DNA of 43,096 nt from a phage, in the sequence record PZ445463.1; one strand, 5' to 3'. The notes beneath the pieces are model-generated. The model was not told where the DNA came from. It ran no database searches and saw only the letters and a list, made by a program, of their open reading frames with translations. Below, piece after piece: positions 4,344 through 39,145 of the stretch (within the stretch, counting starts at the first letter, position 1; every line of letters starts with the position of its first letter). A program made the translations under genes and the position numbers.

Positions 4344-4370
4344 AAGGCCCCATTATGGGGCCTTAGTTTT
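4344..4370. terminator. Bidirectional terminator between convergent genes
   Basis: aaggcccca-tta-tggggcctt followed by agtttt. Confidence 0.5.
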
Positions 4371-4573
4371 CAACGGAATCTTGTGTTTAAATCCTGCTCA
4401 TGGACAACCCTCAGAACAGTGTCATAATCCCCGTATCTTCCAGGTTCAAATATATCTAATGCCTTGTAAGCAGACATTGCGTCAGGGAAAACCTGCAGAA
4501 CCTTTTTAACCCGGCACAAGTCACCGTCGAACTCTTCATCGAACTCTTGAACTACTTCGCAAATTGCATACAT
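4370..4573 (-). CDS. Hypothetical 67 aa protein, reverse-strand moron in head module
   Basis: ORF with AGGAGGTG SD (revcomp of 4579-4586); own promoter 4601-4629 on - strand; convergent terminator hairpin 4347-4362. Confidence 0.6.
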   Translation of the reverse strand: MYAICEVVQEFDEEFDGDLCRVKKVLQVFPDAMSAYKALDIFEPGRYGDYDTVLRVVHEQDLNTRFR

Positions 4574-4598
4574 TTTTCACCTCCTGTTTAAGTTAACT

Positions 4599-4629
4599 GA
4601 ATAGTACCCTATTATATTGGGGTGTGCAA
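4599..4629. repeat. 31-bp exact repeat (second copy at 13124-13154)
   Basis: gaatagtaccctattatattggggtgtgcaa identical at both loci. Confidence 0.9.
4601..4629 (-). promoter_or_regulatory. sigma70-like promoter TTGCAC-N17-TACTAT with embedded GAATAG-N4-CTATT inverted repeat
   Basis: Read on - strand; 31-bp block 4599-4629 identical to 13124-13154; drives gene 4370-4573. Confidence 0.55.
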
Positions 4630-4680
4630 ACTATTTATTTACGTATTCCAGTTATTCCTCGAATTGTAAATGTTGGAATA

Positions 4681-4696
4681 AACTATTCGAATAGTT
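4681..4696. promoter_or_regulatory. Perfect 16-bp palindrome AACTATTCGAATAGTT
   Basis: Uses the same CTATTC/GAATAG half-sites as the promoter-embedded repeat, in everted arrangement. Confidence 0.4.
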
Positions 4697-4947
4697 GACT
4701 TTTCACTAAAAATATGATAAGCTCCACCTGAGCTTGTGAAGTATGAACAAGCGACCGCGGCGCGGGCAGGTAACGGAGCGGGACGTAAGTCCTGAGTGCA
4801 GTTACGCTGACGCGTTCGGAAGGGCCATACTCTATTGCTTGTGTAAAAAGTAACTGGTTTACTGAGATTACGCCGTTTCTATGTTTAAATGATAAGGACT
4901 AGCGCCCCGCTTTATGGCGGGGCTTTACTTATCGAGAAAGGGGAAAC

Positions 4948-5334
4948 ATGAATCTTAAAGCAACTGTCGTAGCAGGAGCATGTTTCATCATCCTGGTTTA
5001 CGCACACGGCATCTACCAGTATCGCAGCGGATGGAACGAAGGCCGGGCTAATCTCGTTTCGCAGCAACAGCAGAAAGCACAGGCTGAGTTAGCGAAGAAA
5101 ACACAACGGCAGCAGCAGGATGAATCGAAGGCCGCCGCCGCTGACAACGAAGGCAAGACGAAATCAGAGGTGATTACCCGTGAAGTCGTTAAGTACATTA
5201 AAACGCCTGGTCGCAGCGTGTGCACTTTTGACCCTGAGCGCGTGCAGCTCAAGTCCCGCGCCGTCGCCAACGCCAATTCCATCCCCGGATACGACGATGA
5301 TGCAGCCGCCGTGCAAACTGGCGCAGCCAAGTAG
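4948..5334 (+). CDS. Rz-like inner-membrane spanin (i-spanin)
   Basis: N-terminal TM segment ATVVAGACFIILVYAHGI followed by Q/A/K-rich coiled-coil-like periplasmic domain; overlapping +1 frame lipoprotein ORF. Confidence 0.6.
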   Translation: MNLKATVVAGACFIILVYAHGIYQYRSGWNEGRANLVSQQQQKAQAELAKKTQRQQQDESKAAAADNEGKTKSEVITREVVKYIKTPGRSVCTFDPERVQLKSRAVANANSIPGYDDDAAAVQTGAAK

Positions 5335-5443
5335 CGACGCTGATGAGGATTTGGCCGTCGACGTTCAGAATGCTGAATGCGTACGGCAACTGAGACTGAA
5401 AGTGTTCATGTTGCAGGATTACGTGAGGAATATTCTGGAATAG
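5180..5443 (+). CDS. Rz1-like outer-membrane lipoprotein spanin (o-spanin), overlapping Rz in +1 frame
   Basis: Signal peptide with lipobox LSAC (LTLSAC) then proline-rich SSSPAPSPTPIPSP; overlaps 3' end of Rz-like gene. Confidence 0.55.
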   Translation: MKSLSTLKRLVAACALLTLSACSSSPAPSPTPIPSPDTTMMQPPCKLAQPSSDADEDLAVDVQNAECVRQLRLKVFMLQDYVRNILE

Positions 5444-5525
5444 TTGCCTTGCATGTTGGAATAATTTATTCTTGACATGTAAATCCGGGTGGCCCGGATT
5501 CCAACGTCCAGGGGACATACTGACT

Positions 5526-11481: not shown

Positions 11482-11507
11482 AAGGCCCCGAAAGGGGCCT
11501 TTTTTAT
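11482..11507. terminator. Bidirectional rho-independent terminator closing major tail gene and reverse-strand island
   Basis: aaggcccc-gaaa-ggggcctt then tttttatt. Confidence 0.65.
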
Positions 11508-13095: not shown

Positions 13096-13125
13096 TTTAA
13101 ACCCCTTCATTGTTGGTGTAAGCGA

Positions 13126-13154
13126 ATAGTACCCTATTATATTGGGGTGTGCAA
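13126..13154 (-). promoter_or_regulatory. sigma70-like promoter TTGCAC-N17-TACTAT (exact copy of 4601-4629)
   Basis: Identical 31-mer; positioned upstream of reverse-strand island genes. Confidence 0.55.
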
Positions 13155-13261
13155 GTAATGTGATAGAATAATTTTGCGCCTAGTGTCGCACACGAAAAGC
13201 GGGTGGTTCCCGTCTGGCGCGTCAATCTTAACCTGTAACCTCTTAACCAAAGGATTAAAGA

Positions 13262-13678: not shown

Positions 13679-14043
13679 ACGCGCTGTACAGGTTCGCCAC
13701 CTACGAGTTCGTCGATAAGCATAAAATCAGAGAGTTTGATTCTATAGCTGACGGACACGAACAGGCGCTTATCGCGATGGGTGTAATCGATAAGAAAAAA
13801 CGTGCAGCGCGACGGGGTGGGCCAGAATGCCCGCCCCTTTTTATATCCACCTTTGAGACGTATTGCGACATTAAGTTTACGCGACACGTGCGCGAGGACG
13901 CTGTAGTATTGTTTGCAAGAGAATCCGTTACGTGGCAAGACCTGAAAGCCTATCTCGATGTTACGCAAAAACAGCTTAGCCTGTTCGAGATAGACATTAT
14001 CATGGGCTTAGAAGCAATCTTTGAAGGTAGAAATCATGGCTGA
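13648..14043 (+). CDS. Putative -1 frameshift extension of tail chaperone (T-like segment of G/GT)
   Basis: Frame open from 13648 to 14043, -1 relative to 13262-13678; A-rich GGAAAAG at 13669-13675 directly before the G stop; runs to tape measure start. Confidence 0.4.
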   Translation, partial: RRAQSITGKVDALYRFATYEFVDKHKIREFDSIADGHEQALIAMGVIDKKKRAARRGGPECPPLFISTFETYCDIKFTRHVREDAVVLFARESVTWQDLKAYLDVTQKQLSLFEIDIIMGLEAIFEGRNHG

Positions 14044-26582: not shown

Positions 26583-27267
26583 CTCTACATTCTCCTTCAG
26601 GCCACCTATTAGGAAAAGACGGTATATGTGAAACTTCTCTCGCCGCTTTTATTCTTTTAATGGTGGGACCTATCTCCGTAACCATTTCAATGAATGTAAA
26701 CCGGTGTCCTCTGGTAAGATTACATGTCTGACAACAAGAAACGCAGTTAGATACTATGTGCCCGCTTGTATTATCTATGCGGTCTACCCCGACTTTTGTA
26801 GTGCTTCCGCAATAATGGCATGGCTGTGATATTAGTTTAATAACGCTTTCCAGTGTTAAATCGCAGATAAGCCCTTTTCCTGAATCTGCTCTTTTGTATC
26901 CTAACAAAAGCGCGTACGCCCGCGTCCTTTGGTCCTTATTCACCAGTTCCCTGCGTTGCTTGTTGAGACACTCCCGGCAATCTTTCCTGATATGAGAGCC
27001 ATTACTTTTATTTCCTTTCCTGAAGTTTTCCTCTGTTAAAGGTTTTACCTCCCCACACTTTCTGCATTTAACAGGCTTCCCAGTGAAAACATACCAAGGG
27101 CTTTCTCGTCTGGATTTACCTTGTAATTTAAGTTTTTCGTCATACTTTTCCTTCCTGTTAGCATTTACACACTCTTTACACCAGCGTTGCAGCCCGAGGC
27201 GCGTTGACTTTGAAAAATACTCTGTAGTCGCCGGTTTATCTTCGCCGCATCTTGAACACTTTTTCAT
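26572..27267 (-). CDS. HNH endonuclease with N-terminal zinc-ribbon repeats
   Basis: HNH core CHYCGSTTKVGVDRIDNTSGHIVSNCVSCCQTCN; two CxxC...CxxC pairs N-terminal; start chosen at ATG 27267 with GGAG SD. Confidence 0.7.
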   Translation of the reverse strand: MKKCSRCGEDKPATTEYFSKSTRLGLQRWCKECVNANRKEKYDEKLKLQGKSRRESPWYVFTGKPVKCRKCGEVKPLTEENFRKGNKSNGSHIRKDCRECLNKQRRELVNKDQRTRAYALLLGYKRADSGKGLICDLTLESVIKLISQPCHYCGSTTKVGVDRIDNTSGHIVSNCVSCCQTCNLTRGHRFTFIEMVTEIGPTIKRIKAAREVSHIPSFPNRWPEGECRDAK

Positions 27268-27284
27268 TAATAACTCCAAAAAAA

Positions 27285-27313
27285 AATACCGACATAGCCA
27301 TTATATCGGTATT
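27285..27313 (-). terminator. Hairpin plus 9-T tract downstream of DNA polymerase gene
   Basis: On - strand: aataccga ... tcggtatt followed by ttttttttt. Confidence 0.5.
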
Positions 27314-27344
27314 TACATTTTCTACAACGTATTTCCTAAATCTA

Positions 27345-29525
27345 CTACTTGGCGTATCTGTACATTTCGCTACCTTCTGCTACAAGAGGGAACCCCTCCG
27401 CCCATTCCGGTAATTCACACATCAACCGCTCAAGCTCTGCAACATTGTATTCCGGTAAATCAGGTGTCTCGCAGATAATCTCATCGTGTACGTGAAGTAC
27501 AATCGGGTAGCCGTTTGCTTCTACGTTCAGCAGGGCATTAGCCAGCAAATCACGGCACAATGCCTGAGTGCAGTTTTCCACCAGTTTACCCGAGTAGGTG
27601 TACTGGAACCCCCACTGACGGGTTAGCTGATTTTCGCCCTGGTACTTAATGCGCACGTTAGTAGACACTTTTCCATCTTCGTCTGTTTCTTTCGACACGC
27701 TCAACCCGACGCCCGGATAAGACATAACGCGACCCGACGGCAACGTCATGCGCAACCACCAGCCGGCGACTTTGTTGCCGTTGTTGTCTGTCTCTACGTT
27801 GCGCGAAAACTTAACCCCCCTAGGCCCCGCGGTGAACTCTTTACCTGGATTGCGGATAGCGGCCATAGCTGCGTCTTCAATATCTCGCCAGAAAGCTACT
27901 GTTTCAGGGTGTGACTCTCGCCACATACGCTTGATAGCGTCACAGGTACGCCACACTTTCTTATCAAGAATATACGATGGTCGGTCATCCTTCTCCCCGG
28001 GTCGCGGCGGTCGCTTGGCTTCCTGAATACGTGCCCATTCATAGCCGCGTGCAGTAGCCGCCCAGATGTGGTCCGGGAAAGTACCGTCCATTGTTTTTGA
28101 CATATCAACAAGGTCAAGTCCGAGGTTCTTAGCAAACTGAACGAAAGCGCCAACACCACCAGCGTAGCCGAGGCCAAGCTCGCAGGCTTTACCAATCTGG
28201 CGCAAGTCTTTGCGTTCCTTCTTAATGTAATCCGGCTCCATGCCGAACATCTTACCCGCGGTTACACAGTAAATGTCCAGCCCGGCGCGGAACGTATCTA
28301 GCGCGGTTTCTTCGCCTGCCAGCCACGCAAGCCCCCGACCTTCAACGTTAGAGTAATCGGCGACGACAAACTTTTTTCCGGCTTCCGGGATAATGCAGCT
28401 ACGCACCGTCGATGCCGTTAGCTTAGCGACATCGAAACGGCGATGCGCGCGGCCCTTAAGTAACGCTGAAATACCTTTATCCAGTTCATCATCGTGATAG
28501 TACCCACGCGCGAGGTTCTGCGGCTGAAATCCTTTACCGGCAAATCGTAATGTACGCTTGGCTCCGCCGTACTGAATGCAACCACGACGGCGGTCGTCCG
28601 ACGAGCGCCCTAACAGCAGCGGGTTATATTTCGTTGACGCTGTGGACGCGGCCCCGAGGCGCATTTCGATAATCGTGCGTGCGTCGTCCGGTAAATCATC
28701 ATCCGCCAACAGGTCGTTAAGCGTAGACTTCTGCGCGTTGTGGATGCGGTGCGCTGGTGCAAGTTCACGCAGAATCGGCAGGAAGTCTTTACCAGTAAGC
28801 GAGCCGCCGTATTTGCGCTGTGCTTCTTCCTGTAGCTGGGCCTTGTGTTTTTCCACGGCTTCAATCGCGGCTTCCGCCAGCGTCACATCAACCTTAAACC
28901 CACGGTCGTTAATCAACTGGTCCAGTTCCAGTACACGGTCTTCGAACTCGGAGTTACCCCAACGCGGCAGCTTATGGAAGACTTCACGCATCGCAGTGAT
29001 GTCGCTCACGGCGTACCTGATGAACATCGCCCACTCGTCAGGGTGAGTTTCTGCGGTGTAGCGGCGGATTTTGTAGTTCTTCGGCGTCGGTTTAGAGAAA
29101 CGCTTAATCAGAGCCTTGCCGCGTTTATCTTTCGCGTTGTCTGCAGACACGCCCAGCACTTCGCACAGCGCATCAAGAGAACCCGGCAGCGCGTGACGGA
29201 ACGCCCAAATCATAGTATCAATGGTGTTACTTACCGGAATATCAAAGTCCCAGCAGTGTTTCATGATTAGGCGATCGAAAAGTCCACCGTTGTGCCACAC
29301 CATCTTGATGCGGCTGTTGGGCTTAACAAGGCGGCGCAGTGCGCGGTGTAAATCCCCCGGCATGTCGCTGCCGTCGGTGCAATCCCATACCCGCACAGGT
29401 TCGTCGTCAAAAGCATATGTACAGATAAGCACTTCGGTTGACGGGTGTTCGGCGTAAGCGTAAGAACCGACTTTCTTCAAATCGGCTTCTGAGAATGTTT
29501 CAAAGTCTAAGAACAGGTAACTCAT
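27345..29525 (-). CDS. Family A DNA polymerase with 3'-5' exonuclease domain
   Basis: Exo I LFLDFETFS; Pol motif A VVADYSNVEGRGLAWLAGE; motif C LHVHDEI. Confidence 0.85.
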   Translation of the reverse strand: MSYLFLDFETFSEADLKKVGSYAYAEHPSTEVLICTYAFDDEPVRVWDCTDGSDMPGDLHRALRRLVKPNSRIKMVWHNGGLFDRLIMKHCWDFDIPVSNTIDTMIWAFRHALPGSLDALCEVLGVSADNAKDKRGKALIKRFSKPTPKNYKIRRYTAETHPDEWAMFIRYAVSDITAMREVFHKLPRWGNSEFEDRVLELDQLINDRGFKVDVTLAEAAIEAVEKHKAQLQEEAQRKYGGSLTGKDFLPILRELAPAHRIHNAQKSTLNDLLADDDLPDDARTIIEMRLGAASTASTKYNPLLLGRSSDDRRRGCIQYGGAKRTLRFAGKGFQPQNLARGYYHDDELDKGISALLKGRAHRRFDVAKLTASTVRSCIIPEAGKKFVVADYSNVEGRGLAWLAGEETALDTFRAGLDIYCVTAGKMFGMEPDYIKKERKDLRQIGKACELGLGYAGGVGAFVQFAKNLGLDLVDMSKTMDGTFPDHIWAATARGYEWARIQEAKRPPRPGEKDDRPSYILDKKVWRTCDAIKRMWRESHPETVAFWRDIEDAAMAAIRNPGKEFTAGPRGVKFSRNVETDNNGNKVAGWWLRMTLPSGRVMSYPGVGLSVSKETDEDGKVSTNVRIKYQGENQLTRQWGFQYTYSGKLVENCTQALCRDLLANALLNVEANGYPIVLHVHDEIICETPDLPEYNVAELERLMCELPEWAEGFPLVAEGSEMYRYAK

Positions 29526-29544
29526 TATTTTTGACCCCTAGTAA

Positions 29545-29570
29545 AAAGGCCCAATGAAGGGCCTTAGTTA
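29545..29570 (-). terminator. Terminator between SSB-like and polymerase genes
   Basis: On - strand: aaggccc-ttcatt-gggcctt then tttttac. Confidence 0.5.
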
Positions 29571-29584
29571 AATTGATTCAGATA

Positions 29585-30211
29585 TTAGCGGCGGCGACGT
29601 TCGCGGCGCGGTGCTTCATCTTCTTCGTCGTCTTCCAGGTCATTGACGCTCGCAGCGACTTTAGAACCGCCGAACGCTTTGCCTTCGCCAACGTATTTAA
29701 TCGCCAGCAGGTTAACGCCGAGGACTTTGTATTTCTGGCTGAACCAGATTTCAACGCTTACGTTAGCTAAGCATCCGCTGTAAACCTGTTCACCTTCAAT
29801 CTGTTCGCCGTCTACGTTGAAGTCCTGCTCTACCTGAGTCTCACCTTTTTTAGAGGTTACAATCAGCGGCTGTTTCTGTGCCTTCGCTTTGAAGTAGAAG
29901 CCTTCCGGGAAGTCTTCAAACGGATTGTCGCGCTCGGCAATGTCTTTAATCGCGCATTTATCCATGTGCTTACCTTCACCGTAGTTGGACTTCATCCATT
30001 TCTCGGCAGCGGCTGCGCCTAACGCTTCTTCAACTACAGCGTAAACGGTGTCGTAGAGTGCATCGATTTGAGCATGGTCAGACGGCAGGATGATAGTCGC
30101 GCTGTACTGGCCTTTAGTGATTGAGCCATCATCGTTTTCACGGTCTTTTTCACGTTCAAATACGTTAACCCAAGCAGTGTTTACTTTACGCAGATTCAGT
30201 TTAATACCCAT
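29585..30211 (-). CDS. Putative ssDNA-binding protein (DUF2815-like by context)
   Basis: 208 aa ORF adjacent to polymerase with acidic/basic C-terminal tail DDLEDDEEDEAPRRERRRR; family assignment tentative. Confidence 0.4.
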   Translation of the reverse strand: MGIKLNLRKVNTAWVNVFEREKDRENDDGSITKGQYSATIILPSDHAQIDALYDTVYAVVEEALGAAAAEKWMKSNYGEGKHMDKCAIKDIAERDNPFEDFPEGFYFKAKAQKQPLIVTSKKGETQVEQDFNVDGEQIEGEQVYSGCLANVSVEIWFSQKYKVLGVNLLAIKYVGEGKAFGGSKVAASVNDLEDDEEDEAPRRERRRR

Positions 30212-30270
30212 CTTAATTTCTCGCTTTTAAGTTTCGTTTACTCCGGGAAGCTGCCCGGTCAGTGATTAGA

Positions 30271-30299
30271 ACTATAATAGCTAACTATTCAGGTGTCAA
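30271..30299 (-). promoter_or_regulatory. sigma70-like promoter TTGACA-N17-TATAGT with GAATAG-N4-CTATT in spacer
   Basis: -35 and operator half-site overlap the last codons (YLTPE-stop) of ORF 30285-30488; upstream of SSB-like gene. Confidence 0.45.
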
Positions 30300-30488
30300 A
30301 TAAAATTTCGCAATACGGACTATGTTCTCGAAATCATTCATATCAACGGGTTCGAATTCATCCTCCACATGGTTGTATCGCACCATCGTGCCGTTCAGGA
30401 ACGTAAACGATTCCGAATGGATATAACCGCCCCAGCGCCATATCATCACAAAATCTTTATCTGTGGGCATTTCATTTACTTGAATCAT
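30285..30488 (-). CDS. Hypothetical 67 aa protein
   Basis: ATGA-coupled to upstream nuclease; GGAGGA SD; its 3' end encodes promoter 30271-30299. Confidence 0.5.
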   Translation of the reverse strand: MIQVNEMPTDKDFVMIWRWGGYIHSESFTFLNGTMVRYNHVEDEFEPVDMNDFENIVRIAKFYLTPE

Positions 30489-31726
30489 TCCAAATCCTCC
30501 TCTGTTACCTGATTCCACTCAGGACGTTTGTCGTCTGCCGTTGCGACACATGGTGCGCCTGGCTTACGGGTAATGAAGTCTTTCAGTTCTTCTTCCGGTA
30601 TGACTTTAACAGCTTCGGTAGGTGACATGAGCACTTCTTTAGTCAGCTTGTCGCCGTAGAGTTCTGTTACTTTCTCCGCGTCTTTCCATGCACGATTACC
30701 CGGGCGGCCTTCAACCAACTTGTAACCATGAACTTTCTTACCTGAATGCAACGCGGCCGCCATAGCTTTCTCAACCTTGTCGATGTGCTGGCGCAACAGC
30801 GGCAACTTCTCATACTCAGCTACGAGTTGCTCCGGCGTCAGTTCCAGCACAAAGTCGTCTTCCAGTTCTTCCGCCAGTACAGAATTAACCGTCTTTGTAC
30901 GCGCAGCGCATTGTTCAGAGAACCGGCACCACTGACAACCATCTACCGATGGCTTGAAGTCCGACGCTTTCAGGTTCTTCTTGCCACGGAAATACGCATC
31001 AAGCGCTAACAGCGCGCGTTTCTGTGCGAACTTAGCGAACAGTTCCAGTCCTTCAACCGGGATGTCCCACTCTGTCGCGCCCCCAGCGTAAGGCTGGAAG
31101 ATGACCAGACGAACGGTTGTTATGTTATAACGTCTCTTGAGTCGACGATAAACACCGAGAGCGTAAAGCATAAGCTGCTTGTTTTCTTTCGCTTCGACGC
31201 GATGCCGCCCGGTTTTCAGGTCGCCGATAATGAGCATGTGCTCGTCGGTGTTTGCCAGTTCCTGGACAGCAACGAGGTCAGCGGTTCCGAACGTCTCAAC
31301 GCCTTCATACCCCGGATGCAATACCTCAGTAAGATTGACACGCATTTCCAGCTTGGCGTAAGTCGCTACGTCTATAATCGCTTTGCAGTAGTCGGTGTAC
31401 TTGCGCACCTGCTCAATCATGTCCGCCGTAATCAGTACCGCGCCTTTCATCGGGCTGATTAGCGCCTTAATCTGACCTTTGCCTTCATCCAGTACGTAAG
31501 CGCCGACTTCACGCTCCAACGGCAACGCAGTGCCGCGTATATAGGCGTTGAGATGGACCTCAGCTATGGTGTGCATGGCGGTCCCCGTAACGGCAGCTTT
31601 ACCTGACGTGTTAGGAATATCTTTTTCACAGGCCAGTGATGCACTGCACGTCAGCCACTTCTTAGCACCTGACGGCGACAATAAGGCGTGCACATCATTA
31701 TTGCCACCGCGTTCTTTTAGAATCAT
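30485..31726 (-). CDS. PD-(D/E)XK nuclease with Cas4-like cysteine cluster (DUF2800-like)
   Basis: N-terminal LTCSASLAC and C-terminal CQWCRFSEQC cysteines flank a nuclease core; start at ATG 31726 with GGGAGAA SD. Confidence 0.55.
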   Translation of the reverse strand: MILKERGGNNDVHALLSPSGAKKWLTCSASLACEKDIPNTSGKAAVTGTAMHTIAEVHLNAYIRGTALPLEREVGAYVLDEGKGQIKALISPMKGAVLITADMIEQVRKYTDYCKAIIDVATYAKLEMRVNLTEVLHPGYEGVETFGTADLVAVQELANTDEHMLIIGDLKTGRHRVEAKENKQLMLYALGVYRRLKRRYNITTVRLVIFQPYAGGATEWDIPVEGLELFAKFAQKRALLALDAYFRGKKNLKASDFKPSVDGCQWCRFSEQCAARTKTVNSVLAEELEDDFVLELTPEQLVAEYEKLPLLRQHIDKVEKAMAAALHSGKKVHGYKLVEGRPGNRAWKDAEKVTELYGDKLTKEVLMSPTEAVKVIPEEELKDFITRKPGAPCVATADDKRPEWNQVTEEDLE

Positions 31727-32570: not shown

Positions 32571-32599
32571 ACTATAATAGCGAACTATTCACATGTCAA
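32571..32599 (-). promoter_or_regulatory. sigma70-like promoter TTGACA-N17-TATAGT with GAATAG-N4-CTATT in spacer
   Basis: Upstream of acidic-protein gene; divergent from the XRE gene. Confidence 0.5.
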
Positions 32600-32615: not shown

Positions 32616-32633
32616 AATTAATATGGTACTATT
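32616..32633 (+). promoter_or_regulatory. Possible extended -10 promoter (TGgTACTAT) with degenerate AATAT-N4-CTATTC repeat, for XRE gene
   Basis: TG-n-TACTAT at 32624-32632; no good -35. Confidence 0.3.
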
Positions 32634-32663
32634 CACATATCAACTGACTAAGGAGTAATTGAC

Positions 32664-32879
32664 ATGCAACCATCTGAACTAGGCATCCGTGTAGAACAAC
32701 GCCGCAAAGAACTCGGCATCTCCCAGCGCCGTTTGGCGGCCCTGACCGGCGTTTCCCAGGGCGCGATTAACCAACTGGCACTTGGAGTAACTCAGGACGT
32801 CCGCCCGGCAACGCTGTTCAAACTGGCGGAAGTTCTGGAAGTAGACGCCAAGTGGCTGGCGTTAGGTGAAGGGGCTTAA
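32664..32879 (+). CDS. XRE-family helix-turn-helix transcriptional regulator (Cro/CI-like)
   Basis: HTH signature ISQRRLAALTGVSQGAINQLALG; AAGGAG SD; isolated + strand gene between two - strand operons; terminator overlapping stop. Confidence 0.75.
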   Translation: MQPSELGIRVEQRRKELGISQRRLAALTGVSQGAINQLALGVTQDVRPATLFKLAEVLEVDAKWLALGEGA

Positions 32880-35843: not shown

Positions 35844-35880
35844 CCAATCCCTGCAATATTTAATCTTTACAAAAAAGTTA

Positions 35881-35910
35881 TTGAAAGTTCTTGACACATG
35901 TTTGTATAAT
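35881..35910 (+). promoter_or_regulatory. sigma70-like promoter TTGAAA-N18-TATAAT (rightward)
   Basis: Consensus -10 TATAAT at 35905-35910; back-to-back with the leftward promoter. Confidence 0.5.
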
Positions 35911-35936
35911 GGTTTTGGGACTTGTATATATTACGG

Positions 35937-35969
35937 AGTTGACGAACCCTCCCCGAGGGATTCGTCAAC
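35937..35969 (+). other. Strong hairpin gttgacgaa-ccctcc..gaggga-ttcgtcaac
   Basis: 9-bp perfect outer stem plus inner ccctc/gaggg pairing. Confidence 0.5.
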
Positions 35970-36109
35970 CCCTCCCAGACAGCTGAGATGCTTGCCTTGT
36001 GGTTTAAGGATAAGTGTATCTAAATCTCATTTAAAGAAGTAACCCGCTGAAATATCTACTGTTTCTTAATGTGCCGTAGATTCGCAACCGTAAAAATGTA
36101 ACGATTATT

Positions 36110-36137
36110 GGGCAGGCTTAGGGCCTGCCCTTTAGTT
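36110..36137 (+). terminator. Terminator ending the short non-coding unit
   Basis: gggcaggc-ttagg-gcctgccc then tttagtt. Confidence 0.5.
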
Positions 36138-36202
36138 ACCAAGTAATAAGAATAAAGGCACAACAGTTTCGAAAGAATCACAACGGCAACGTAACTATTC
36201 TC

Positions 36203-36231
36203 TTGCACACCCCAACATAATAGGATACTAT
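36203..36231 (+). promoter_or_regulatory. sigma70-like promoter TTGCAC-N17-TACTAT with TAATAG-N4-CTATTC inverted repeat
   Basis: Two mismatches from the 31-mer family; followed by conserved AACGAGA leader and SD of first early gene. Confidence 0.55.
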
Positions 36232-36265
36232 TCACTTATCGAAACGAGACAGAGGAGTGAAGGTT

Positions 36266-37641: not shown

Positions 37642-37670
37642 TTGCACACTGTGATAGAATAGGCTACTAT
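37642..37670 (+). promoter_or_regulatory. sigma70-like promoter TTGCAC-N17-TACTAT with GAATAG-N4-CTATTC inverted repeat
   Basis: Same architecture and AACGAGA leader; upstream of 37702 ORF. Confidence 0.5.
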
Positions 37671-37701
37671 TCATTTACACAAACGAGAGGAGAGACAGAA
37701 G

Positions 37702-38648: not shown

Positions 38649-38852
38649 ATGGTACAGAGATATTCTAAGTATGGGTCCGACAACCATTTCATTGACCGCC
38701 ACGGGAAGTGGGTTAAGTTTGAGGACTACCAGAATCTTGACCTAAAGCTGTTGGAAGTTGAAGCCGAGTTACAGAAATACAAGGACCAGTTCCCGGATTA
38801 CGTCGAGTGCGCGAACTGTGGGTCAGTTACACATGTGGGAGGGGTGGAGTAA
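38649..38852 (+). CDS. Hypothetical 67 aa protein with C-terminal CxxC
   Basis: AGGAG SD; C-terminal ECANCGS. Confidence 0.45.
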   Translation: MVQRYSKYGSDNHFIDRHGKWVKFEDYQNLDLKLLEVEAELQKYKDQFPDYVECANCGSVTHVGGVE

Positions 38853-39145
38853 TGTCGTTAGCAACTGACATCCTGAAACGAAGCGGCCTTGCGCCGCTGT
38901 CACCGAGAGCGAAGACACGTATACACAAGCGTCGCCGTAACGTGCTGTACCCTGAGATTCAGGCCAGACGCAAAGTTGTCCGCGCCTGTGGATTCCAGAA
39001 CGGGAAGGCCGTGAATCTGGGTGAGTTCAAAACACAGGAACGCGCAGCTATCGCTAATCGGTTATTTAATTACTGGAAATCGCTGGGGTATGAAGATATT
39101 CCGACGAAACCGCAGAGACGACAATACATCTGGCGTCATAAATAA
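38852..39145 (+). CDS. Hypothetical basic 97 aa protein
   Basis: Start at ATG 38852 overlapping upstream stop; Arg/Lys-rich. Confidence 0.45.
   Translation: MSLATDILKRSGLAPLSPRAKTRIHKRRRNVLYPEIQARRKVVRACGFQNGKAVNLGEFKTQERAAIANRLFNYWKSLGYEDIPTKPQRRQYIWRHK

Follow-up and report, generated by a model that had tools for sequence, protein, structure and literature searches.

What occupies the 374-bp gap in the genome of Escherichia phage SonjaBuckley_Bas74 (Bas74 below) that separates a minus-strand moron gene from the plus-strand genes for spanin, scaffold and capsid? Bas74 is a Kagunavirus-like member of the Guernseyvirinae, and its complete genome of 43,096 bp is the window analysed here; the GenBank counterpart, PQ850627.1, is a circular record, and subtracting 538 from a record coordinate gives the window coordinate. 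The initial annotation had singled out the gap as unusually long for this genome, and it is indeed the second largest once dubious mini open reading frames (mini-ORFs) are disregarded, a 482-bp early intergenic region being larger. It had offered as possible contents an operator cluster, a small RNA, or a packaging or replication site. We hold with moderate confidence that the gap is a compact transcription-control module, whose chief product is a non-coding, structured plus-strand RNA of about 200 nt. The coordinates of the features are collected in Table 1.

The plus-strand promoter reads TTGACT-N17-TGaTAAGCT, with a predicted transcription start at about 4730. It was overlooked by a simple consensus scan, because its −10 hexamer matches the consensus at only three of six positions (T1, A2 and T6). 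The comparison of the promoter covered 37 rows, namely the sequence of the window and 36 unique type-A sequences (the letters used here denote sequence types of the RNA). In these rows the TG and TAAGCT elements are invariant and the −35 hexamer is altered in a single sequence, but variation is seen in the spacer and in the n of TGn (A, C or G). The layout is kept in the divergent types J (TAGACT-17-TGtTACGCT) and C (TGGACT-17-TGaTAACCT). This is the conservation pattern expected of an extended −10 promoter, which is what the element is predicted to be.

The RNA predicted from this promoter covers approximately 4730–4930, and its first 110 nt or so form a structured domain. Divergent copies of the domain were taken from IMG/VR, metagenomes and GenBank, and the differences among them are compensatory. 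On a MAFFT alignment of 13 variants, a structure derived by hand has 95.2% of cells paired, as against 32–40% for slid controls, and in eight pairs both partners change. This alignment served to build a covariance model, termed R1, which has one match in the window (4730–4841, 119.8 bits) and matches 78 copies in related loci, which represent 47 distinct sequences. Among these 47 homologues 96.6% of cells are paired (slid controls 31–37%), and 11 pairs are compensated, in 111 cells. The conserved G-U pairs make the fold signal specific to the plus-strand RNA. The covariance analysis proposed for this region thus gives strong support for the 110-nt domain. The sub-helix at 4755–4765 is a tentative part of the fold: an alternative local hairpin there (CCGC-GGC-GCGG) also shows one compensatory change, in L018.

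The RNA is also the best-conserved stretch of the locus. Between Bas74 and the Jerseyvirus SETP13, positions 4624–4923 are 92–100% identical and the spanin, scaffold and capsid genes 56–90%. No fewer than 180 phage records contain 80% or more of 4700–4947, in every case at 95% identity or above, although between Kagunavirus and Jerseyvirus the identity of scaffold and capsid DNA is only about 83%. The closest relatives are Kagunavirus, and the element is found in some Jerseyvirus as well, both genera belonging to the Guernseyvirinae; the region is present and near-identical in relatives across two genera, which was the conservation check originally suggested for it. Most of the variation within type A falls in the promoter spacer, terminator loop and ribosome-binding site; the body of the RNA varies little, with very few polymorphic sites in 4842–4901 among the 36 unique sequences. 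Of the blocks in this 3′ half, AGAUUNCGCCGU and AUGUUUA are common to the J type and GUUUCUAU to the B type. In types A, B, J and C the start of the first hairpin and the predicted 5′ end are about 2 nt apart or less. The RNA falls into discrete types, of which type A seems, from the sequences, to have passed between genera.

Homology by R1 extends to the J-type leader, a clear homologue at 62–70 bits. The C, D and E leaders at the spanin-proximal locus have no R1 match, yet they are long and, by prediction, structured. Type D covaries clearly (11 compensated pairs in four sequences), whereas type C, with only three such pairs and no net covariation signal, is marginal. Whatever the sequence type (J, C, D or E), every relative examined has a promoter and a long structured leader in the spanin-proximal position. 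Beyond these phages, pattern scans of IMG/VR and metagenomes found only contigs of Guernseyvirinae size (about 40–45 kb) or short fragments. A pattern scan of bacterial genomes (ACCGCGNNGCGG-N35-65-TYCGGAAGG) was too loose: it gave 120 chance matches in GC-rich genomes, none confirmed by R1, and does not establish absence from bacteria. Searching 5,426 E. coli genomes with 4690–4947 by blastn gave no match, although such a search is blind to short seeds; host origin or mimicry of the RNA was considered and set aside on this empty result, with the same limit on short seeds.

GenBank annotates a 36-aa ORF, Bas74_0007, within the RNA, and it is necessary to ask whether the stretch is instead a real small-protein gene. 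Several depositors have annotated it, 18 of 46 copies encode an identical 36-aa product, and in about 12 more the 36-aa product departs from it at one to three residues. Other copies that are otherwise conserved, however, are disrupted by stop codons and single-nucleotide indels and yield unrelated or truncated products of 9, 17, 34 or 41 aa (deletion of one nucleotide at 4764 recurs in 4 of the 37 type-A sequences), and the ATG is missing from the B2-type copies and from L053, the latter at the same locus. The Shine-Dalgarno sequence is weak, the substitutions in helices are compensatory, and most records leave the ORF without annotation. Reading frame, start and stop are not preserved among homologues and the ORF is spurious, as far as sequence comparison can tell; a small-protein gene is extremely unlikely here. 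Since the ORF at 4743–4853 is not conserved, the label of a non-coding region stands for the biology of the gap, but not for its GenBank annotation, in which the ORF appears and the gap is not wholly non-coding. With a promoter, a covarying structure, extreme conservation and a non-conserved ORF, the earlier suggestion that the gap could hold a small RNA is strongly supported.

The 3′ end of the RNA is predicted to lie at a hairpin that scored as terminator-like (eight base pairs in the stem, seven of them GC), with an interrupted U-tract (UUUACUUAU) after it. The hairpin and short U-run that had been claimed at 4904–4930 are therefore present, as a stem-loop at 4904–4923 and the tract after it. 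The pair 4908–4919 is C-G, A-U or U-A across phages. The J type keeps the hairpin with compensatory changes, followed by UU only; in types C and D there is no U-tract after the last hairpin, and in Serratia phage Tsm2 the leader continues straight into the spanin ribosome-binding site. Given little or no U-tract or hairpin in types J, C, D and E, the RNA of these phages must continue into the spanin mRNA. In Bas74 the spanin ribosome-binding site lies 17 nt beyond the predicted end of the RNA, and no other promoter was seen before the spanin start at 4948, either by the scan or by inspection. The upstream Hoc-like gene ends at a hairpin (4344–4364) with AGTTTTC 3′ of it on the plus strand. Near-identical hairpins, AAGGCCCC-loop-GGGGCCTT, at 4344–4364 and 11482–11501 flank minus-strand moron insertions; by the scan the second is terminator-like on both strands and the first on the minus strand only.

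Table 1. Features of the 374-bp gap of Bas74 and its surroundings (window coordinates)
Feature	Position	Strand	Details
Gap	4574–4947		5′ neighbour, minus-strand moron 4370–4573; 3′ neighbour, i-spanin gene at 4948
Moron gene	4370–4573	−	From ORF list; annotated Bas74_0006
Moron Shine-Dalgarno AGGAGGTG	4578–4585	−	From sequence
'Class-1' sigma-70 moron promoter	4598–4629	−	TTGCAC (4629–4624), 17-nt spacer, TACTAT (4606–4601)
12-mer motif ATGTTGGAATAA	4670–4681	+	Left part of upstream candidate operator; exact second copy 5453–5464
Palindrome GGAATAAACTATTC (GAATA-N3-TATTC)	4675–4688		Candidate regulator-binding site, 6 nt 5′ of −35 hexamer
16-bp perfect palindrome AACTATTCGAATAGTT	4681–4696		Two inverted ACTATTC half-sites; 2-nt overlap with −35 hexamer
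Sigma-70 promoter, extended −10	4695–4723	+	TTGACT 4695–4700, 17-nt spacer, TG 4715–4716, TAAGCT 4718–4723
GC-rich stretch	4720–4809		GC 0.62–0.67; either flank 0.25–0.35
Structured 5′ RNA domain	4730–4841	+	5′-terminal hairpin P1 and long irregular hairpin
Hairpin P1	4732–4737 / 4747–4752	+	
36-aa ORF Bas74_0007	4743–4853	+	GenBank PQ850627.1 annotation; judged spurious
Long irregular hairpin	4755–4757/4817–4819, 4759–4763/4812–4816, 4767–4769/4807–4809, 4770–4774/4801–4805	+	
Apical stem	4781–4784 / 4789–4792	+	Closes GUAA loop
Conserved blocks 3′ of long hairpin			UUCGGAAGGGCC, CUAUUG
AU-rich 3′ half of RNA	4842–4901	+	Near-invariant in type A; small hairpin 4850–4853 / 4859–4862
GC-rich hairpin 4904–4923, then interrupted U-tract TTTACTTAT	4904–4932	+	Candidate partial intrinsic terminator or 3′-end hairpin
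i-Spanin ribosome-binding site GAAAGGGG and ATG (4948)	4936–4950	+	
Late genes 3′ of gap	i-spanin 4948, scaffold 5526, major capsid 6230	+	
Second candidate operator copy GGAATAATTTATTC	5458–5471	+	Abuts TTGACA 5472–5477, upstream of scaffold gene
Hairpin before scaffold gene	5482–5489 / 5493–5500	+	Kept in A, J, C and D types
ACTATTC sites	4599, 4682, 4689, 5438, 13124, 30284, 32584, 32628, 36194, 36227, 37666		

Many relatives hold a second, 'B' copy, with the same promoter, the same 110-nt domain and a different 3′ part. The B copies are located in the early intergenic region, between an excisionase-like helix-turn-helix (HTH) gene and the early promoter; in two-copy phages they head the other rightward (early) operon in the orientation of that operon. 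An R1 search of the window found no B copy of the domain in Bas74. At the equivalent locus (35915–36135) are another promoter, an RNA that folds strongly (z = −4.33) and a terminator. Viewed over 35880–36160 (+), this Bas74 locus consists of a promoter TTGAAA-18-TATAAT, an RNA of about 220 nt and a terminator GGGCAGGC...GCCTGCCC TTTAG, of which only the 3′ 100 nt or so is widely conserved (335 phage records). The small minus-strand ORFs Bas74_0053 and 0054 at this locus are probably spurious. A 21-nt box, TTGACACATNTTTGTATAATG (35890–35911), is common to the Bas74 B-locus promoter and to D-type leaders at the spanin locus (L056 1211–1232; L100, L104 and L111), and promoter modules seem, by sequence, to move between the two loci.

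The candidate operators lie upstream of the plus-strand promoter and over its −35 hexamer. The claimed 16-bp palindrome at 4681–4696 is confirmed and is unique: AACTATTCGAATAGTT occurs once in the window, where 0.21 matches would be expected even with three mismatches permitted. The GC-rich segment claimed at about 4745–4800 is likewise present, and so is the 12-mer ATGTTGGAATAA together with its repeat, although both had been placed one base off. The bare 12-mer is not above chance (4 matches in the window with up to two mismatches, 3.25 expected). Both exact copies sit within a longer palindrome, GGAATANNNTATTC, for which 27 matches are found in the window at up to two mismatches against 9.5 expected; it is perfect at two sites only, the perfect palindrome matches in the window being those at 4675–4688 and 5458–5471. 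J-type (GGAATACTTTATTC) and C-type (GGAATAAATTATTC) relatives have the palindrome too, at an unchanged distance from the promoter. There are 11 copies of the heptamer ACTATTC in the window where 4.6 would be expected; 1 of 100 shuffles reaches the count of 11, and 9 of the 11 copies are in or beside promoter-like or operator sequences, including the −10 regions of early promoters. The operator cluster that had been suggested thus finds support at the level of sequence, in palindromes made from an enriched, promoter-associated half-site. A phage DNA-binding protein would be the obvious candidate reader of these palindromes.

One such candidate binder of the ACTATTC palindromes is an XRE-family protein. 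Its gene (32664–32879, +) is an unannotated 71-aa HTH gene (Pfam HTH_3, E = 3.9e-13) inside the minus-strand replication cluster, where GenBank instead has a 31-aa minus-strand ORF, Bas74_0048. Two early-promoter-like −10 regions and an AAGGAG ribosome-binding site precede the gene, and a terminator-looking hairpin and then a T-run follow it.

A second candidate operator region is found between spanin and scaffold. The intergenic region 5438–5525 is conserved in phages of types A, J, C and D, including the scaffold-proximal GGAATAATTTATTC; it contains GGAATAG overlapping the Rz1 stop codon, which the ACTATTC at 5438 also overlaps. The outer stem of its hairpin at 5482–5500 covaries (AAT/ATT, CAC/GTG, AG/CT) with a free central loop base, and no U-tract follows. 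The TTGACA at 5472–5477 was considered as a promoter and rejected: a usable −10 at the right spacing is absent, and the J type reads TTGTTA. We treat it as a candidate operator or hairpin site. In the E-type relatives (L109, L110 and L115) the GGAATA palindrome gives way to some seven copies of TTGCGAG/CTCGCAA placed around the leader, an inverted pair among them, which points to a different operator system at their spanin locus.

The moron has a promoter of its own on the opposite strand. The minus-strand promoter that had been claimed in the gap is real: it reads TTGCAC-N17-TACTAT, and the 32-mer that contains it is present in three genomic copies, recurring at 13123–13154 (−) and 36203–36234 (+) where the chance expectation is 0. 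The copy at 13123–13154 is upstream of a superinfection-immunity moron cluster, and that at 36203–36234 heads the early rightward operon. Partial copies are found at 32573–32591 and 32619–32635, both before the unannotated HTH gene, and at 37658–37673. These near-identical 32-nt sequences, TTGCACACCCCAAYATAATAGGRTACTATTCA, are a family of early promoters, of which the copy at 4598–4629 serves the moron. Because the spacer is kept as well as the hexamers, a factor that reads beyond the hexamers is suggested. Back-to-back with the minus-strand early promoter at 13123–13154 is a likely tail-operon promoter, TTGGGG-16-TGaTAGAAT (within 13142–13235, +), with a short and apparently foldable GC-rich leader (GCGCC...GGCGC) 3′ of it. 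Further along, at 13814–13837 (+), a very strong terminator-like hairpin of nine pairs (eight GC) followed by TTTTTATATC sits within the second annotated tail assembly chaperone gene (13684–14043).

The RNA has solid covariation support and matches no Rfam family. A cmscan of the whole window against Rfam 15 at gathering thresholds gave no matches; on 4500–5000 at E ≤ 10 there were only weak chance matches, of 11–17.5 bits against thresholds of 35–160, and loci carrying the B (L004), J, C, D and E types gave one unrelated weak match, outside the leader region. ARAGORN found no tRNA or tmRNA genes in the window. Our literature search, which was incomplete, found no earlier description of the RNA, and no account was found in the literature searched of late-gene timing in Guernseyvirinae phages. 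Several likenesses noticed by eye were rejected as partial and not conserved across types: the rrn/nut boxA-boxC elements (ACUCUAUUG...GUGU), RfaH ops, the GGAA loop of 4.5S RNA, CsrA GGA motifs, the hairpin of type I-E CRISPR repeats (compared with the terminator stem) and the hammerhead core.

What, then, might the RNA do? The reading that we prefer, in an evenly balanced judgement, is that it is a cis-acting 5′ leader or attenuator of the spanin–scaffold–capsid unit. The host sigma-70 polymerase would start at about 4730 from the promoter at 4695–4723, and would then either stop at the terminal hairpin, with release of the ~200-nt RNA, or continue into the late genes. How much transcription or mRNA passes through would be set by the conserved 5′ domain, possibly through altered elongation and termination (as in the HK022 put or lambda pR′-tR′ leaders), protection of the 5′ end of the mRNA, or both. 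A phage DNA-binding protein at the palindromes beside the −35 hexamer would control initiation, and the separate early promoter on the opposite strand would drive the moron. A role in cis is favoured because of the hairpin upstream, the lack of any other promoter, the structured leader in every relative, and the position and orientation at the head of the operon.

Two known systems offer parallels, and in both cases the likeness is functional only. The lambda late leader consists of the pR′ promoter, the 194-nt '6S' transcript and the tR′ terminator. Like it, the Bas74 locus would combine a strong host-type promoter, an untranslated RNA of about 200 nt and a terminator-like end, followed by Rz/Rz1-type lysis genes and then head genes. 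The palindromes of Bas74, however, are upstream of and over the −35 hexamer rather than between −35 and −10, the leader itself is conserved and covarying, and several relatives lack any terminator. To our knowledge, the lambda 6S region is not known as a conserved covarying structure. The other parallel is with putL and putR of HK022, which are cis-acting antiterminator RNAs (PMC9378689). As with putL, a stem-loop RNA is transcribed directly after the promoter (PMC9378689); the 5′ domain begins at the predicted +1, some phages have two related copies, one heading each of the major operons (spanin/head and early), and no dedicated antiterminator protein is evident. The put RNAs are about 70 nt long with two stems and a triplex, compared with about 110 nt for the 5′ domain here, and the B copies, unlike put, have another promoter 3′ of them. 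While put acts in cis on the beta′ zinc-binding domain of RNA polymerase against pausing and termination, an action on the polymerase would in our case be hypothetical, drawn from this analogy.

A number of points weigh against a cis-acting leader. The RNA is not a put homologue, since R1 has no match in the PL/PR region of HK022 (best hit 6.4 bits, E = 1.1, with filters off over 27000–31000, an estimated PL/PR area in which the put sites were not located). No Q-like or N-like antiterminator family was found by Pfam in ten hypothetical proteins and none is annotated, the small ORFs having been only partly scanned. As an N-like antiterminator we considered and rejected Bas74_0067, since the motif that suggested it is missing in Jerseyvirus homologues, including that of phage S123, which has the same RNA type. 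The tail genes have their own promoter and there is a second operator site before scaffold, so one long antiterminated late operon is not required. The B copies have an early promoter of their own about 60–100 nt 3′ of them, which a pure leader would not need. Start site, 3′ end and read-through are all predictions. As to the fold, the alignment of 47 sequences was fitted to R1, which favours the modelled structure, and a single-sequence fold is only modestly better than shuffles (z = −1.86). Discrete types and apparent movement between genera mean that part of the near-identity may reflect recent exchange. Finally, promoter, RNA and terminator are also the anatomy of an autonomous small-RNA gene. 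For Bas74_0067 itself (38852–39145, +), we note that it is a 97-aa early protein conserved across 495 Guernseyvirinae records, that its C-terminal half is AP2-like by eye with no Pfam match, and that its arginine-rich N-terminus, RAKTRIHKRRRN, resembles, in Kagunavirus only, the arginine-rich RNA-binding motif of P22 N.

That last point leads to the reading of the locus as a stand-alone trans-acting small-RNA gene, an 'RNA moron', with read-through into spanin merely incidental. The 5′ domain would then be a scaffold for a protein partner and the single-stranded 3′ half would pair with, or decoy, a host or phage target, for example in host-takeover regulation or in countering a defence system. 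We regard this as the main rival, possible but less likely than the leader. It would fit the moron anatomy of promoter, product and hairpin with U-run, the near-invariant AU-rich 3′ half, and the adjoining slot, which carries different protein-coding morons in different phages. It would also suit the B copies, which share the 5′ domain, differ in the 3′ part and stop before a separate early promoter, much like paralogues with different seeds. Identity between genera is 95–98% for the RNA, with its discrete types, compared with about 80% for the flanking genes, as is usual for accessory cassettes that are exchanged; the exchange of discrete types from genus to genus, however, fits the leader and the small RNA alike. 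Terminator-ended small RNAs such as the prophage-encoded DicF and IpeX are similar in size (about 200 nt) and in having a promoter of their own and, towards the 3′ end, an AU-rich single-stranded stretch ahead of a hairpin with U-run, but the RNA here has no Rfam match, its U-tract is interrupted, and it is always at the head of a major operon, in a shared orientation. In types J, C, D and E, moreover, the U-tract or hairpin is weak or absent, so that the RNA runs into the spanin mRNA. No target was found, the E. coli blastn search, which is insensitive to short seeds, being empty; a crude duplex scan of the RNA against phage translation-start regions was uninformative. A bolder proposal, rather improbable in our view, is that the 110-nt domain is a protein-independent RNA device that reprograms the emerging host RNA polymerase, put-like but unrelated to put, or else a swappable decoy RNA cassette.

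The remaining readings require less of the RNA. It may be only a passive 5′ stabiliser or translation leader, which shields late mRNA from RNase E and Rho, with no regulatory decision and no specific partner. The 5′ untranslated region of ompA has a stabiliser hairpin of this kind, and in all types here a hairpin likewise starts no more than about 2 nt from the predicted 5′ end. The leaders are rich in G and strongly folded, and the consensus folds of C and D pair an upstream leader stretch with the G-rich GAGGGGTTGGG just before the spanin ATG, which in these models is taken to include the spanin ribosome-binding site. But the element is far larger than an ompA-type stabiliser and conserved at the level of sequence, unpaired nucleotides included; its near-invariant loops, internal loops and single-stranded blocks (GAGUGUAG, UUCGGAAGGGCC and CUAUUG) are unneeded for generic protection, and a second copy upstream of another promoter is left unexplained. 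Passive stabilization alone is therefore improbable. A site acting at the level of DNA, that is, a replication origin, possibly primed by transcription, or a packaging signal, is very unlikely. Nucleotide conservation is very high, and a promoter, a GC-rich RNA and an AT-rich segment resemble transcript-primed origins, the basis of the comparison being those of ColE1 and T7; B copies, furthermore, lie in the divergent early region by the helicase-primase gene, at the GC-skew minimum. Against this, an RNA from one strand is indicated by the compensatory changes and by the conservation of G-U pairs, there are no iterons or repeated initiator sites, and no inflection in GC skew is seen near 4700. 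The skew extremes are at 36239 and 21840 and coincide with transcription-strand switches, and GC skew was rejected as origin evidence since its extremes track these switches. Phages of the group are described as headful packagers in published genome notes (PMC6776780). Nothing thus speaks for the packaging or replication site of the initial annotation, given a strand-specific RNA signal and skew extremes elsewhere.

Among non-coding sequences leading into the capsid genes of these phages, the element is the best conserved. It would offer a concrete point at which mutations can probe late-gene control in a virulent siphovirus using the host polymerase, with the paralogues and the alternative leader types forming a natural swap series. 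Recognizing the RNA also corrects a recurring mis-annotation, that of a 36-aa 'hypothetical protein'. If the domain does reprogram polymerase, virulent Guernseyvirinae would place one such device at the head of each rightward operon, and transcription would cross internal terminators; if it is a decoy, its target would be a host defence or RNA-binding factor, which would explain why discrete types are exchanged between genera. Guernseyvirinae (Kagunavirus and Jerseyvirus) are frequently isolated for use in therapy and biocontrol, and the BASEL collection turns them into a community model.

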